Shown here piece by piece: positions 3,852 to 43,327 of a stretch of 64,000 nucleotides of DNA. The DNA lies in NCBI GenBank assembly GCA_963169345.1, contig CAUJCT010000058.1:23889-87888 (forward strand), written 5' to 3'. The position numbers and the translations under genes were made by a program. Each line of letters begins with the position of its first letter. The first letter of the stretch is position 1. The stretch comes from Bacteroidota bacterium. GTDB lineage: Bacteria; Bacteroidota; Bacteroidia; NS11-12g; UBA955. The notes beneath the pieces were generated by a model. That model made no database searches. It was given only the letters and a program-made list of their open reading frames with translations, and was not told the origin of the DNA.

Positions 3852-3877
3852 TTAGAGACAAAAATAGGGAAAGAAAA

Positions 3878-4306
3878 GTTAAGTCGTTAAGTTGTTAAGT
3901 CGTTAAGTCGTAGTGCTTCGCTGTTAAGTCGTAAAGTTGTTAAGTCGTTAAGTCGTATTGCTTATCGTTAGATTTTATACTTTCAACAATCATTCTGTGC
4001 TTTCTTTCTGCGCCTTCCAGTTTGGGCAAGCAAACCAAAAGCCGTGACAAGGGAAAAAATCTTTTCTGTGTGTTTTGCGTGTTCCGCCCCAATTCTGCGA
4101 TCTACCTCACGTTAGCATCCGCGTATTCCAGTTTGCGCAAGCAAACCAATTGCCGTGTCAAGGGAAAAAATCTTTTCTGTGTGATTCGCGTGTTCTCTCC
4201 TTGTTCTGCGATCTACATGCCTTCAACTCCCCATTCCACTATCCTCAATCCTACCAATCACCCCACGACTTAACGACTCAACGACTTAACGACTTAACAG
4301 CGCAGC
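3878..4306. repeat. Composite intergenic repeat, copy A: (GTTAAGTC)n array, two ~111 bp units, inverted (GACTTAAC)n array
   Basis: Octamer arrays at 3878-3956 and, inverted, 4265-4306. Cores TTCCAGTTTG(C/G)GCAAGCAAACC-N4-GCCGTG(T/A)CAA at 4015-4050 and 4126-4161. Homologous to copies B, C and D. Confidence 0.92.
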
Positions 4307-4711
4307 TTCATTTTTCATCCTCCTGTAAAACCACAAAGGCAAAAATCCAAAATTGAGAATTGCAATGCCCAATACCAACAGTATTGAAGCGCCTTGCCAG
4401 TGTTGAATTTTAAACAGCAAACCTGTGCTGCATAAAGTAGCGGCTAAATAGCCTAAAATGAACATTGATTTTTTCATAATGATGTTATTTTTATTAATGA
4501 TGTAATTGGTTGCTTGTTGTACTTGTCTCAGTCCGGATATACCGAAACTGTCCAGTGCTTTCTGTAATGCTTGATCAAAATCTTTGCTGTCACTCAGCTC
4601 GAGCTGACAGCAGATATGATCGAGCAGACTCTCCTGTAAATCGGGCATAGTAACACCCCTCTCTATAATGTTGAGTCGGATAATTTCTATATTGTGCGCT
4701 TGTAATTCCAT
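4286..4711 (-). CDS. PadR-associated membrane protein with a GldL-N-like TM hairpin at the C-terminus
   Basis: 141 aa. Soluble N-terminal part (LLDHICCQLE) followed by two TM helices around GLLFKIQHWQGA. Start overlaps the padR stop (TAATG). The last residues AALLSR* are encoded by repeat copy A. Confidence 0.75.
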   Translation of the reverse strand: MELQAHNIEIIRLNIIERGVTMPDLQESLLDHICCQLELSDSKDFDQALQKALDSFGISGLRQVQQATNYIINKNNIIMKKSMFILGYLAATLCSTGLLFKIQHWQGASILLVLGIAILNFGFLPLWFYRRMKNEAALLSR

Positions 4712-5043
4712 TAACTGATTTTTGGGTTTAGTATAAGATTCATAGCGTGCACAAACTCGTTGAAGTCCTGCATCTTTTGCGCAATTACTGAATGACCTTT
4801 CTTTGTAAGTGAATAGTATTTCCTGACTCTTTTACCAATGAATTCCTTCTCAGTACTGAGGATTCCATCCGCCTCCAGCTTATGCAATGTTGGATACAAG
4901 GCGCCTTCGGTTAACTCTATGCGACCATTGGTAATATCTTTCACCCGCTGCGTAATTTCATAGCCGTACATGCGTTTGTTCTCATGAAGCAGCTTTAATA
5001 CTATGGGTTGAAGGGTTCCTTTTATCAGTTCTTTCGAATACAT
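4711..5043 (-). CDS. PadR family transcriptional regulator
   Basis: MYSKELIKGTLQPIVLKLL..MYGYEI..LTEGALYPTLHKLE..RKYYSLT is a typical PadR wHTH. Start moved from the track's 5130 to the ATG at 5043, which follows a TATATTTG box. Confidence 0.92.
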   Translation of the reverse strand: MYSKELIKGTLQPIVLKLLHENKRMYGYEITQRVKDITNGRIELTEGALYPTLHKLEADGILSTEKEFIGKRVRKYYSLTKKGHSVIAQKMQDFNEFVHAMNLILNPKIS

Positions 5044-5051
5044 AAGGCAAA

Positions 5052-5074
5052 TATACATAATATTCTTAGGTATA
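5052..5074. promoter_or_regulatory. Candidate PadR autoregulatory operator overlapping the padR -7 box (5048-5055)
   Basis: Imperfect palindrome TATACATAATATTCTTAGGTATA directly over the promoter. Confidence 0.5.
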
Positions 5075-5149
5075 ACATTTAATTTTAATATTTTATTGTG
5101 TGAGATTCTAAAATAATCTGAGTTTACCAACTTTTATTGTTGCCTGCTC

Positions 5150-12096: not shown

Positions 12097-12729
12097 ATGA
12101 AAATTGAAATCTGGAGTGATGTTGCTTGTCCTTTTTGCTATATCGGCAAAAGACGATTGGAACAGGCATTGGAGCAGTTTGAACACAAGGACGAGGTAGA
12201 AATAGAATGGAAAAGTTATTTATTGAATCCGGATTTGAAACCTGAATCGGGTCAATCATTATATGAATATCTTTCTAAAGCTAAAGGATGGTCTATGGAC
12301 TATACCATAAAAGCCAATCAACAGGTATTGGAAATGGCTAAAGAAGTGGGTCTTGAATACCAGCTGGACAAAGTGCGCATAGCCAATACGACCGATGCTC
12401 ACCGAATCATTCAGCTTGCCAAACAAAAGGGTTTGGGTGCGCAAATTGAAGAGGCTTTTTTTGATGCTTACTTCACTAAAGGTGCGGATCTCGGCGACCA
12501 CGATGTATTGGTGGATATAGCAGTACGTGTCGGATTAAACGAGACTGAAGCAAGACAAGTTTTGGAAAACCAATTGCTGAACGACAAAATCAGTCAGGAC
12601 ATCTATGAATCGACTCAAATCGGCGTTCGTGGAGTGCCCTTTTTTGTTTTCGACAACAAGTATGGCATTTCAGGGGCACAGCCTTTGGAAGTCTTTACAA
12701 GGACGCTTGAACAAACATATGGGAAATAG
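12097..12729 (+). CDS. DsbA family oxidoreductase (FrnE-like)
   Basis: MKIEIWSDVACPFCYIGKRR and GVRGVPFF motifs. Confidence 0.92.
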   Translation: MKIEIWSDVACPFCYIGKRRLEQALEQFEHKDEVEIEWKSYLLNPDLKPESGQSLYEYLSKAKGWSMDYTIKANQQVLEMAKEVGLEYQLDKVRIANTTDAHRIIQLAKQKGLGAQIEEAFFDAYFTKGADLGDHDVLVDIAVRVGLNETEARQVLENQLLNDKISQDIYESTQIGVRGVPFFVFDNKYGISGAQPLEVFTRTLEQTYGK

Positions 12730-12735
12730 CAAAAA

Positions 12736-13699
12736 GCTGAACGCTGCGCTGCTGAAAGGCTGAAAAGCTGAATCGCGTCGCCGTTGAGTTGTTAAGTTGT
12801 TAAGTGCTGCGCTGTTAAGTCGTTGAGTTGTTAAGTCGTTGAGTTGTAGAGTTTGTCGATATGCTTTAAGATTCTCTTAATGTATATCTCGTAGCATTCT
12901 TGTCGCTTTCGTAGGCGTCGTCGATTTATCGCGACGCTCCTGAAGTTTGAATTCTTATGATTGTCGATAAACTAGAAGTTTATCCTCAATCCGGCTTCTG
13001 TGTCTTCCAGTTTGCGTAAGCAAACCTTGGCCGTGTCAATCCCGTACCTACGGGATAAAATTTCTGCGTATTCTGTGTTTTCTTTCCTTATTCTGTGATC
13101 TACCTCTTCATATACCCACCGTTCTTTTTAACGCAGAACTCGCAGATAAAAGATATTATAATAAATTATACTTGGTAAAATTTCTAGATTTGTCTTTAAT
13201 CATTTTCGAACTATCCGCATTAAGCGGAGGGATTAACGCTGATAGATTTCGGAAAGTTCTAAGTTATCAAGACCAGTGAGCTTCTTCTTTATAGTTATCC
13301 AACAGAATGTATCCCGTATCATAAGGGACGGGACTGGACATTCCATAATCTCTTCTACCGCGACACAATTCAGCTTTTAAGCCTTTCAGCAATTCAGCAG
13401 TTTTCCCTTCTGTGTCTTCCTGTTTGCGCAAGCAAACCAATTGCCGTGTCAAATGAAAAAAAATTTCTGCGTTTTTTGCGTTTTCCGCTCCAATTCTGCG
13501 ATCTACCTCACGTTGGCATCCGTGTGTTCCAGTTTGCGCCAGCAAACCAATTGCCGTGTCAAAGGAAAAAATCTTTTCTGTGTGCTCTGTGTGTTCTTTC
13601 CTCGTTCTGCGACCTACCTCCCCTCAACTCCCCATTCCACAATCATCATCCCAACAACTCACCCCACGACTTAACGACATTTCGACTTAACGACTTAAC
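12736..13699. repeat. Composite intergenic repeat, copy B (nested, with a unique ~260 bp insert)
   Basis: GCTGAA-type octamers 12736-12773, GTTAAGTC array 12783-12853, hairpin 12915-12938, core 13005-13039, insert 13110-13368, inverted TTCAGC array 13369-13398, cores 13417-13452 and 13527-13562, inverted GACTTAAC array 13666-13699. Confidence 0.92.
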
Positions 13700-13705
13700 T
13701 GCCCC

Positions 13706-14413
13706 CTATCCTTTACACCCCTTCTTGCACTTCTTACCTTTCATACAATCCTGACAAACGACAAAGATATTGTCCGCGAATTTTCGACTCACACTCGAAA
13801 CTTTGCCTTCCACTTCTATTTGCAATAGCTCATCATAAGCATTGCGCGATATAACTTTTATGACGTTGTTAATGCCCAATCCAACACTGATGACATACTG
13901 TAAAAATGGAGCCGAATTGTCTTTAACCGCTACCATCATACATCTCTCTCCGGGTGTCATATCCGATAAGCAGACTTTATACTTGATTTTCATCTCGCCC
14001 TTGGCATTCGGTATCACATCACCATGTGGATCAAATTCAGGATAATCAAGAAATTTATCCAGTTTTTCTATGAGCTTCGAACTTTGAATATGCTCTAATT
14101 GCTCCGCTACTTCATGCACTTCGTCCCAGGCAAATCCCAATTTCACACATAAAAATGTCTCCCATAAACGGTGCTTGCGCAAGACTTCTACACCCGATTT
14201 CTCCCCCGCTTTGGTTAATTTTATTTTGCCGTATTTCTCGTAATCAATCAGCTTTTTATCCTTGAGCTTCTTCAGCATATCGTTCACTGTTGCCGGTTTT
14301 ACACCTAAATGTGCCGCCAGTTCATTAGTGCCGGCTTCCTTCTTTTCCAGCGTCTCACGTGTCAACTGAAACAAGGCTTTCAGATAATTTTCTTCGGTAT
14401 ACGAAAGTACCAT
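13706..14413 (-). CDS. mntR: DtxR/MntR family metal-dependent regulator with FeoA domain and Cys-rich tail
   Basis: Motifs TEENYLKALF, VKPATVNDMLKKL, LRKHRLWETFL, VHEVAEQLEH, FDPHGDVIP. Start placed at MVLSY (14413), 4 nt after TATTTTTG. Confidence 0.88.
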   Translation of the reverse strand: MVLSYTEENYLKALFQLTRETLEKKEAGTNELAAHLGVKPATVNDMLKKLKDKKLIDYEKYGKIKLTKAGEKSGVEVLRKHRLWETFLCVKLGFAWDEVHEVAEQLEHIQSSKLIEKLDKFLDYPEFDPHGDVIPNAKGEMKIKYKVCLSDMTPGERCMMVAVKDNSAPFLQYVISVGLGINNVIKVISRNAYDELLQIEVEGKVSSVSRKFADNIFVVCQDCMKGKKCKKGCKG

Positions 14414-16961: not shown

Positions 16962-17825
16962 ATGTCGAAATTAATTCAGGTTAAATGGTACAAAGGTGTA
17001 TTGGCTTTTTTAATAGTCTTATTTGTTATTCCACTAGGTCATGCCTTAATGGTACTTACGGAACATCTTATACCGGGATACAAATTTGAGTCAGCCGCCG
17101 TATTAGGTTTTGCCGGACTTATCTGTGTGTTAATTGGTGTATATAAAAACAAGCGCGCCTTAGCAGCTACTCTGTTTGGATTCATAGGTGGTATTTTAAT
17201 ATGGACGGGGTGGGTAGAATTTTCATTTGTATGGATTGCCGAGAAGCTAAAGGTTCAACCCTTGGTAGAGAACAATGAAGTCACCACCAAAGGCGAATAT
17301 CTGGTGATGATGTCATCTTTGGGTTTGCTTTCGGTAGTATTGGTATTGTTAGTCTTTTCTAGTTCGCGTTGCCAATTGTTCAGATGGATTCAGAAGCACA
17401 TGCGATTGAATGAGATTCTCAACAGGGATTCGAAGCGCCCTTTGGCAGTTGTTACCTTTTTTGAAACCATCATGATCATCTGGACCTTCTACATCGTACT
17501 CTTGCTGGTTTACGATGAAGACATAGCAGGTTCAAAGCACTGGATGACCTATATGGTGGCCTTTGGTTCCCTTTTCTGGTCGATTTATTTATGCAGAAAC
17601 CTATTTAAGATTCAGCAATTGGATTATTCAATCAGATATGCCATTCCGGTTGTAGTTATATTTTGGAATTTTATAGAAATATTAGGCCGCTGGAATTATT
17701 TAACCGAGATTTGGATTGACCCCTTCGGACACTGGATGGAGAATACTTTGATCCTCCTCATCTTTACATTCTTTGTGGTTCAGGCAGTTTTGAATAGAAA
17801 TAAAGCTGCGCTGTTGAGTCGTTGA
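16962..17825 (+). CDS. Polytopic membrane protein of unknown function
   Basis: 287 aa with about 8 hydrophobic segments. C-terminal AALLSR* is encoded by repeat copy C. Confidence 0.8.
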   Translation: MSKLIQVKWYKGVLAFLIVLFVIPLGHALMVLTEHLIPGYKFESAAVLGFAGLICVLIGVYKNKRALAATLFGFIGGILIWTGWVEFSFVWIAEKLKVQPLVENNEVTTKGEYLVMMSSLGLLSVVLVLLVFSSSRCQLFRWIQKHMRLNEILNRDSKRPLAVVTFFETIMIIWTFYIVLLLVYDEDIAGSKHWMTYMVAFGSLFWSIYLCRNLFKIQQLDYSIRYAIPVVVIFWNFIEILGRWNYLTEIWIDPFGHWMENTLILLIFTFFVVQAVLNRNKAALLSR

Positions 17826-18247
17826 GTGCTGCGCTGTTAAGTCGTTAAGTCGTAGAGTTTATCGAAAAGCTTTAAGATTCTCTTAATTTATGTCTCGTAA
17901 CATTATTGTCGCTTCCGTAGGCGTCGTCGTTACCTGTCAGCCTCAGGCTGATCGCGACGCTCTACAAAGGTTAAGTCGTTAAGTCGAAGAGATTATCGAT
18001 AAACTTTAAAGTTAATCCGCATTCCAGTTTCCGCGTCTTCCGTTTGCACAAGCAAACCAATGCCGTGTCAATCCCGTACCTACGGGATAAAATTTCTGCG
18101 TTTTTTGTGTTTTCCGCTCCAATTCTGCGATCTACCTCACGTTGGCATCCGCGCCTTCCCAGTTTGCGCAAGCAAACCCCTGCCGTGTCAAAGGCCTCTT
18201 CTCTTTCTGTGTTTTCTGCGTGTTCTTTCCTTGTTCTGCGATCTACC
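17805..18247. repeat. Composite intergenic repeat, copy C
   Basis: Octamer array 17805-17860, hairpin module 17911-17962, short octamer array, ATCGATAAACTTTAAAGTT module, cores 18038-18071 and 18156-18191. Confidence 0.92.
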
Positions 18248-18276
18248 ACCCTATATTCATAATACCAAACGGGTTC

Positions 18277-18310
18277 AAAAAAAAAGACCATCAAAACTGA
18301 TGGTCTTTTT
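18277..18310 (-). terminator. Rho-independent terminator after pckA
   Basis: AAAAAAAAAGACCATCA-AAAC-TGATGGTCTTTTT. Confidence 0.88.
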
Positions 18311-18330
18311 ATGCTTGTATTTGATATTTC

Positions 18331-42565: not shown

Positions 42566-42713
42566 TCACTGCAAAAATAAGAAATATAAGTAAGACAAAT
42601 ATGAGCTGAATGAAAAGTTATTCTTTATTAATTGGATTAAGATTAATAGTTTAGAATTTCTAAATTGGAAACGTTCGACTTTTTAGAATTATTATTTAAT
42701 AATTACGAGGAGG

Positions 42714-43258
42714 GAGATCGCAGAACAAGGGCAGAACACGCAGAAACCGCAGAAATGTATTTTTTTCTTTGACACGGCCAGGGTTTGCTTGCGCAAACTG
42801 GAAGGCGCTGATGCCAACGTGAGGTAGATCGCAGAATTGGGGCGGAAAACGCAGAAAACACAGAAAGAGAAGAGGCCTTTGATACGGCAAGGGTTTGCTT
42901 GCGCATACGGAAGGCGCGGAAACTGGATTGCAGATTAACTTTAAAGCTTATCGATAAACTCTACGACTTAACGACTTAACAACTCAACGACTTTACAGCG
43001 CAGCATTACGACTTAACCTTTCTTGAGCGTCGCGATCAGCCTGAGGCTGACAGGTAACGACGACGCCTACGGAAGCTACAAAAATGATTCAGGACTTTAA
43101 TTGCAGATTGTTTAAAGTCTATCGACAAGCTAAACGTCTTAACAGCGTAGCTTTACGACTTAACGACTTAACGACTTAACGACTTAACAGCAAAAGGCTT
43201 TAGCTTTTCAGCTATTCAGCTTTTCAGCTATTCAGCCCTTCAGCTATCCAGCTATTCA
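42714..43258. repeat. Composite intergenic repeat, copy D (inverted relative to A-C)
   Basis: Cores 42769-42803 and 42879-42912, GACTTAAC arrays 42963-43017 and 43138-43190, 52 nt hairpin module 43025-43076 identical to copy C, TTCAGC octamer array 43197-43258. Confidence 0.92.
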
Positions 43259-43327
43259 TCTTTTTTTCCCCCAAGTTTGATTTTTAGGTACGAAAAGCAT
43301 TATTTTGCAAATCTTTTTAAAAATTTT

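Follow-up and report, generated by a model that had tools for sequence, protein, structure and literature searches.

How do two unrelated genes come to end in the same six codons and a stop? Both lie in the window analysed here, a stretch of 64,000 nucleotides (C58:23889-87888) from a Bacteroidota genome of 3.63 Mb in 59 contigs (37% G+C). Read directly from the window, the gene at 4286-4711 on the minus strand has the 3' terminus GAA GCT GCG CTG TTA AGT CGT TAA, and the gene at 16962-17825 on the plus strand has the 3' terminus AAA GCT GCG CTG TTG AGT CGT TGA. The shared codons run from GCT at 4306-4304 to TAA at 4288-4286 (minus) in the first gene and from GCT at 17805-17807 to TGA at 17823-17825 (plus) in the second, and the two 21-nt tails are identical but for two synonymous A/G differences (Leu TTA/TTG, stop TAA/TGA). 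A sequence-only reading of this DNA had held that a repeat gives the two proteins the same C-terminus, AALLSR, in the same frame. The sequence bears this out: both tails consist of the outer end, GCTGCGCT-(GTTAAGTC)n, of an intergenic repeat of mosaic build, entered in identical frame, with the repeat end GCTGCGCT-GTTAAGTC-GTTAA at 4286..4306 (minus) and GCTGCGCT-GTTGAGTC-GTTGA at 17805..17825 (plus). A proteome count agrees: among the 3,940 genome ORFs of 90 aa or more, these two genes are the only ones with AALLSR at the terminus.

The first gene encodes a 141-aa, GldL-related, two-helix membrane protein (PF22827) that is translationally coupled to padR (4711-5130) and is a conserved padR partner, with 76 homologues of 137-142 aa; we refer to it as the PadR-partner gene. 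The second encodes a 287-aa multi-pass membrane protein of an unnamed, widespread Bacteroidota family (768 homologues), for which a Pfam search returned no match. Entry of the same arm end in the same frame accounts for AALLSR and the stop in both. Direct reading of the three frames of GCTGCGCT(GTTAAGTC)n gives AALLSR, LRC and CAVKSLSR, with the stop at codon 7, 4 and 9, respectively; since 8, the octamer period, and 3 have no common factor and every unit contains TAA or TGA, all frames close within 4-9 codons. Such closure is unremarkable alone, since by a rough estimate about 40% of random 8-mers of this base composition would stop all frames on a given strand. Likewise, the frame shared by the two genes had a 1 in 3 chance and is uninformative on mechanism. 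In the membrane-protein gene the tail is also the first copy of a 23-nt tandem duplication, GCTGCGCTGTTRAGTCGTTRAGT (17805..17850, plus; period 23, 2.0 copies, 91% matches), which spans the stop codon and whose second copy lies directly downstream.

The repeat to which these tails belong is abundant. Repeat DNA makes up 60.5 kb of the genome in 314 blocks (~1.7%), of which 4.7 kb falls within called ORFs, at least some of these being short ORFs wholly inside repeat DNA. The outer arms of the mosaic are tandem octamers, (GCTGAAWW)n and (GTTAAGTY)n, connected by GCTNCGCT linkers, with four octamers and a 13-nt linker forming a 45-nt higher-order unit; the inner parts consist of hairpin modules and 111-nt core units. 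Copies range from ~46 to 986 bp, and module order varies among them. Within the window, the 18-mer GCTGCGCTGTTRAGTCGT has 7 matches when up to two mismatches are allowed, where shuffles predict 0.00 (9 exact copies genome-wide), and the 16-mer (GTTAAGTC)2 has 21, against 0.02 expected. A strict arm pattern, which gave 137 real and 24 control matches, defines 111 arms genome-wide. Their heads come after a purine-rich run and are directed outward, at a median of 52-88 nt from the neighbouring genes, and their tails are directed inward (median 334-410 nt). A search of the window against Rfam at gathering thresholds found nothing. The mosaic family in its present form is private to the species: the 111-nt core unit, present in 43 genome copies, is missing from each of the 32 congeneric species searched, as are (GTTAAGTC)2 (0/32) and (GCTGAAWD)3 (0/32).

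Four long spacers of the window (3852-4306, 12730-13705, 17800-18260 and 42690-43262) consist almost wholly of recurrent modules with tens of genome copies. Copy A (3852..4306) fills the whole spacer from the start of a MORN-repeat gene (3851) to the end of the PadR-partner gene, and each of its 20-nt bins has 14-126 genomic matches. Its left outer arm (3878..3963, plus) comprises (GTTAAGTY)4, the 13-nt linker GCTTCGCT and a second (GTTAAGTY)4, and is the predicted pairing partner of the right arm; two 111-nt core units (4015..4216, plus) follow, with a GTTTGC-GCAA-GCAAAC hairpin, GCCGTGTCAA and TTCTGCG tracts; and the right outer arm, (GTTRAGTC)4 (4265..4298, minus), includes the gene's stop codon. 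Copy B (12730..13699) lies between dsbA (stop 12727-12729) and mntR (stop 13706-13708), beginning 3-6 nt past the one stop and terminating 6 nt short of the other, in agreement with the earlier observation that the element starts about 6 nt from both. Copy C (17805..18260), built of an arm, a hairpin module and two core units, halts before the PEPCK terminator hairpin at ~18282-18312. This hairpin, AAAAAAAAGACCATCA-AAACTG-ATGGTCTTTTTA (18282-18312), stands between copy C and the PEPCK stop, resembles a two-way terminator and has not been overrun. Copy D (42690..43262) is flanked by two gene starts (42565, 43277). Copies A and B have inverted ends, one boundary being formed by (GTTAAGTC)n and the opposite one by its reverse complement, while copies C and D bear arms on a single side. 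No coding partner (parent IS) with arm-type ends was seen.

Comparison with relatives establishes the direction of change. Same-genus orthologues (44-49% identity) and same-order orthologues (54-55%) already have other tails and are too distant to place a junction, for which closer relatives were drawn from a protein collection; the nearest are only 80-85% identical. C-termini are written here up to the last residue before the stop. The PadR partner ends ...LWFYRRMKNEAALLSR (FYRRMKNEAALLSR) in our genome and ...LWFYRKMKVESN (FYRKMKVESN) in its nearest relatives (83-85% identity, 137 aa), with ...YKQAVN, ...YKRAISQ and ...YKQAIS in distant ones. At the DNA level, homology to two metagenome contigs that carry the 83-85% PadR partner, L053 and L061, stops at GAG/GAA, after which the relatives read AGT AAT TAG. 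The membrane protein ends ...AVLNRNKAALLSR here, ...AIWSKRSLKAS in an 85% relative, which has a 44-nt spacer past its stop without the repeat, ...AISLRNNLKVAR (RNNLKVAR) in an 80% relative (L055), and ...AITMRNSVKLSK (VKLSK) in distant ones. The L055 locus is syntenic (mntR, TonB receptor, membrane protein, PEPCK), and homology stops after AAT AAA/AAT. In both genes the homology break coincides exactly with the first base of GCTGCGCT, and lengths are kept (141 versus 137-142 aa, and 287 versus 281-295 aa, among aligned relatives), which indicates that the repeat replaced 2-5 native codons plus the stop and did not merely add a tail. The AALLSR tail is absent from more than 70 PadR-partner homologues and from the aligned membrane-protein homologues; relatives lacking the repeat there end in VESN, in AVN, AIS or the like, or in LKAS, LKVAR or VKLSK, never in AALLSR. 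The AALLSR tails are thus repeat DNA and derived, and the earlier proposal that the element overwrites gene 3' ends and donates the stop codon is upheld by the junction break at GCTGCGCT and the different tails in relatives. Two metagenome scans with unique pre-junction sequence, made for an empty site in a close strain, returned no contig.

Relatives carry repeats of their own. In the sister lineage (L053:969-1100 and L061:3415-3547), an array of GCTGAATG/GCTGCGCC/GCGAAATG, whose units are related to but different from those described here, begins 2 nt past the purA stop; the array type predates the species, and its units turn over fast. The spacer between the membrane-protein gene and PEPCK in L055 (3990-4120) holds a different, 62-nt tandem duplication, GCTTGTCCACCG.AGTCTAACTTTGTCAATTG.AGCATTTATGCGTA..., and this spacer therefore carries unrelated repeats in different lineages. 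Exact (GTTAAGTC)3 arrays also occur on 24 contigs of unrelated bacteria (for example, L024:6787-6810, L029:6657-6680 and L040:4150-4173), including Paraglaciecola, Algibacter, Citrobacter freundii, Geomonas, Rivularia, Gemmatimonadales, Planctomycetota and others; at the four loci that were read, they are short stand-alone arrays outside nearby reading frames, and inspection of the translated ORFs at three loci revealed no small 'intervening-sequence protein' gene. By our own estimate a 24-mer would be expected ~0.004 times by chance in 596 Gb, so the octamer array has arisen or spread many times.

We considered whether the shared tail could be an artefact, through an assembly chimera at the repeat, or else ancestral, with AALLSR being the original terminus and the source of the repeat. 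The assembly is in 59 contigs that break at these repeats, and one Logan contig departs from the window past the fourth octamer; the gene-to-repeat junctions nonetheless recur, identically, in independent Logan assemblies of four runs, which read on into the repeat for 39-57 nt or more; this rules out an error of the present assembly as the source of the tails. As to an ancestral tail, the 18-mer GCTGCGCTGTTRAGTCGT also occurs at the non-coding positions 12806, 17828 and 3915, and the homologues of both genes lack the tail, making an artefact or an ancestral origin extremely improbable. The departing contig (L059; ERR10643336), whose positions 917-1069 correspond to window 4264-4112 (minus), follows the window through the gene and four octamers and then enters another module, continuing with a hairpin module and a further arm; this divergence reflects strain variation in copy A or else a jump in the de Bruijn graph within the repeat.

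Inspection of the whole genome shows that other genes stop inside repeat units as well. Repeat-covered bases were marked, and genes of at least 110 aa with a covered 3' end were listed, gene calls being crude longest ORFs. In about 11 genes genome-wide the stop codon lies inside an in-phase repeat unit, only two of them ending in AALLSR. Examples are the genes at C19:183725-185506 (end GGCTGAATAG/CTGAAAGG), C13:49868-50563 (AAAAGCTAA/AAAGCTAAAAAGCTGAAT), C27:253-996 (GAAGGGCTGA/ATAGCTGAA) and C20:56714-58039 (GAAAAGCTGA/CGCTGCGCT), and a dinB-like gene at C42:35073-36227 (GATCGTTAA/GTCGTTAAGTC). Most of these overlaps span 1-9 nt, and all are at the extreme 3' end; the AALLSR genes are the clearest long overlaps that can be confirmed against relatives. 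The gene at C19:183725-185506 has an array-like tail of ~29 nt, and its relatives are 39-52% identical over the C-terminal 129 residues, with ends that are not conserved. For annotation, gene ends beside these arrays are real but lineage-specific, and homology is no ground for shortening or lengthening the ~11 genes that stop in repeat units.

Why, then, does the repeat meet stop codons at all? One explanation, offered by the sequence-only reading, is targeted insertion, in which an element or enzyme recognises stops, terminators or the DNA just past genes, and overlap with the gene follows from the target. Many copies do have element-like sequence 0-3 nt past a stop, such as TAA followed by GGGGAAGCTGAA or TAG followed by AGAGCTTCGCTGTTAAG, and the sister-species array beside purA sits similarly close. 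The orientation of the arms argues otherwise: under the strict pattern, 67 heads point toward 5' gene ends and 40 toward 3' ends. Among the 65 arm-bearing spacers (34 tandem, 18 divergent, 13 convergent), arms are no less frequent in divergent spacers, which are free of stop codons, than in convergent ones, and occupancy by any repeat family is likewise similar in the two classes (13.1% of divergent and 12.3% of convergent spacers, versus 5.3% of tandem spacers). Repeat placement thus shows no preference for 3' ends. Nor is there a fixed register, as the GCTNCGCT end lies anywhere between -21 and more than +30 nt relative to the stop, and at copy A the flanks (...GGGAAAGAAAA on one side and TTCATTTTTC on the other) have no direct repeat in common by eye that would suggest a target-site duplication.

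Head distances were compared with random insertion points within repeat-free spacer DNA. Near stops, 10 heads fall within 10 nt (7.2 expected, p = 0.25) and 16 within 20 nt (12.6 expected, p = 0.30), neither being significant. Near starts, heads are depleted, with 0 within 10 nt (7.8 expected, p = 6e-4) and 1 within 20 nt (14.1 expected, p = 1e-5). Penetration into genes is in keeping with this picture. A rough neutral model, in which insertions are tolerated in spacers (~305,000 points) and in the seven 3'-terminal codons of genes (2,810 genes x 21 nt), predicts ~16% of heads in gene tails, and 4-11 of 107 are seen there; overlap of heads with gene tails appears not to be in excess.

The edges of the repeat blocks, defined by BLAST coverage, point the other way. 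Of 60 3'-facing sides, 16 have a block edge flush with the stop, where free positioning of the block anywhere in the leftover spacer predicts 5.5 (P<1e-4). This excess counts in favour of targeting, and it may reflect some pull toward stops or a process of outward growth. Edges are flush on 5' sides too (8 of 70 versus 3.5 expected, a figure partly inflated by over-long start calls), where the arm and its purine-rich leader reach a TAnnTTTG -7 box a few bases ahead of the start codon. Since edges are found at the first base that matters on both sides, we read them as spread or overwriting halted by selection, and a true stop preference is not needed to explain them. With more heads toward starts than ends (67 versus 40), stop distances near random and starts avoided, stop-codon aiming is not supported, and targeted insertion is in our judgement an unlikely account of the shared tail.

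The arms beside starts themselves offer a further observation. At window 3852-3878, C27:31784 and C34:67123 they halt at the TAnnTTTG box, 4-7 nt before the start codon; with the arm abutting the -7 box, the usual -33 element would fall inside repeat DNA, and promoters beside arms may work without a -33 element or borrow one from the repeat.

We consider it likely, from these placement statistics and junctions, that a species-private mosaic repeat has been spreading through spacers, its edges limited by selection, and has in doing so overwritten two gene tails. On this proposal, a non-coding mosaic repeat would spread through the intergenic DNA of the genome by transposition, gene conversion or slippage, and its edges would settle where selection tolerates them: at the -7 promoter box on the 5' side, and at the stop or a few codons into the gene on the 3' side. 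The asymmetry between starts and stops would arise because a gene depends on a promoter ahead of its start but on nothing directly behind its stop. One arm end, GCTGCGCT with GTTRAGTC units behind it, replaced the last 2-5 native codons together with the stop in both genes. What was lost each time was a short cytoplasmic tail, not conserved, beyond the last membrane helix, so the tail change is probably neutral, and its effect on both proteins is probably nil. The result is a clean, dated case of repeat DNA rewriting C-termini: 32 species of the genus lack the repeat, and relatives of 80-85% identity keep other tails. By favouring selection-limited spread at promoter boxes and stops, the placement statistics also narrow the search for the mobility route.

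The inverted ends of copy A suggest another reason for an arm to be kept at a gene's end. If transcription crosses copy A, the tail and arm at 4306-4262 are predicted to pair with 3878-3932 in a ~40-bp stem around the core units; we found no consensus terminator between the paired arms. A selected 3' RNA structure would mean that the arm is retained for pairing with the inverted arm ~330 nt downstream, placing the stop inside a stem that tunes termination, ribosome rescue or mRNA decay, in the manner of REP and Correia elements, with the shared tail as a by-product. The predicted fold of 3860-4330 (minus), in which GCUGCGCU(GUURAGUC)4 pairs with the inverted array at 3878-3932, is stable (MFE -131.6 kcal/mol; z -3.6 versus shuffles). 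There is precedent for such effects: RNase III cleaves Correia inverted repeats in mRNAs, and an ERIC element at the 3' end changes mRNA decay (PMC10969869). Yet the membrane-protein gene has the same tail without an inverted downstream arm, and the arm is missing from all relatives, leaving selection for RNA structure very improbable as the reason why the arm is kept. In a related reading, the outward arms would be adapted bumpers, in which a stop in every frame lets a selfish element overwrite gene ends at almost no cost, the 40-bp RNA stem of the paired arm tunes termination or mRNA decay, and RAYT-like genes are possibly the movers. Taken jointly, these propositions are improbable; if true, they would make the family a Bacteroidota counterpart of REP-mediated control. 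REPs within ~15 nt of a stop reportedly lower translation (Liang, Rudd and Deutscher 2015).

In its build the family comes closer to BIME-like mosaics, the REP/BIME sequences of Enterobacteria with their RAYT transposases. Like these, the present repeat is an extragenic mosaic that varies in the number and order of its modules and often lies right after stops; unlike them, the arms that enter genes are tandem 8-mers with GCTNCGCT linkers and not imperfect palindromes of 20-40 nt. The genome does hold a REP-like palindrome, CAACCTnnnAGGTTG, in 71 copies, 9 of which lie within 60 nt of an octamer arm (111 arms), and PF01797 has matches in four places. Against NF047646, for which the cut-off is 80 bits, two RAYT-like genes for Y1 transposases, C34:26166-26846 and C48:22545-23177, score 47 and 64 bits; the palindrome TTCAACCTGCCAGGTTGAA, rather than octamer arms, flanks the C34 gene. 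A second palindrome family, ACCCTGCTAGGGT (~60 copies), flanks the C48 gene. Because the arms are tandem 8-mers and the RAYT matches fall below threshold, we rejected filing the family as REP/BIME.

Other small repeats match in part. Terminal inverted repeats, as carried by copies A and B, are a feature of MITEs in general, but no defined unit length and no parent IS are seen here. With the Correia elements of Neisseria and ERIC of Yersinia, whose inverted ends form RNA stems in co-transcribed mRNAs and influence their processing, the family shares the predicted pairing of the copy A arms, while those elements are unit-length MITEs with defined target duplications. Cyanobacterial STRR sequences are short, tandemly repeated heptamers scattered in the intergenic DNA of one lineage; they have a period of 7 as opposed to 8 and are not generally described as the outward arms of a larger mosaic. 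The analogy to Rickettsia palindromic elements, drawn by the sequence-only reading, proves loose. It stands insofar as repeat DNA has become coding sequence in unrelated genes, but those elements are inserted in frame inside ORFs and contribute an internal peptide without a stop (PMC10969869), whereas the arm here stops all frames within 4-9 codons and replaces a C-terminal tail only.

The closest parallel is found in Coxiella burnetii, where QMITE1 and QMITE2 extend 1-50 bp into the 3' ends of functional genes, which take residues and/or their stop from them (PMC5896051). There, pntAA and CBU_2058 (a proline/betaine transporter) have a common QMITE-derived tail, AQTHRRQLKGAR, followed by the stop, with protein mass unchanged (PMC5896051), and the authors explain the 3' bias of QMITEs by the tolerance of C-termini together with the need for upstream promoters (PMC5896051; Wachter et al. 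2018, BMC Genomics 19:247). The two cases have in common repeat-derived tails on conserved genes, one tail on two unrelated proteins, and a length that is about unchanged. They differ in that QMITEs are discrete units with terminal inverted repeats and direct repeats, whereas the family described here is a variable mosaic ending in tandem octamers, and they differ in host phylum; the likeness is one of effect on genes, not of sequence family. That effect is already known for small repeats elsewhere, and the tails described here are a new instance of it in a species-private Bacteroidota repeat.
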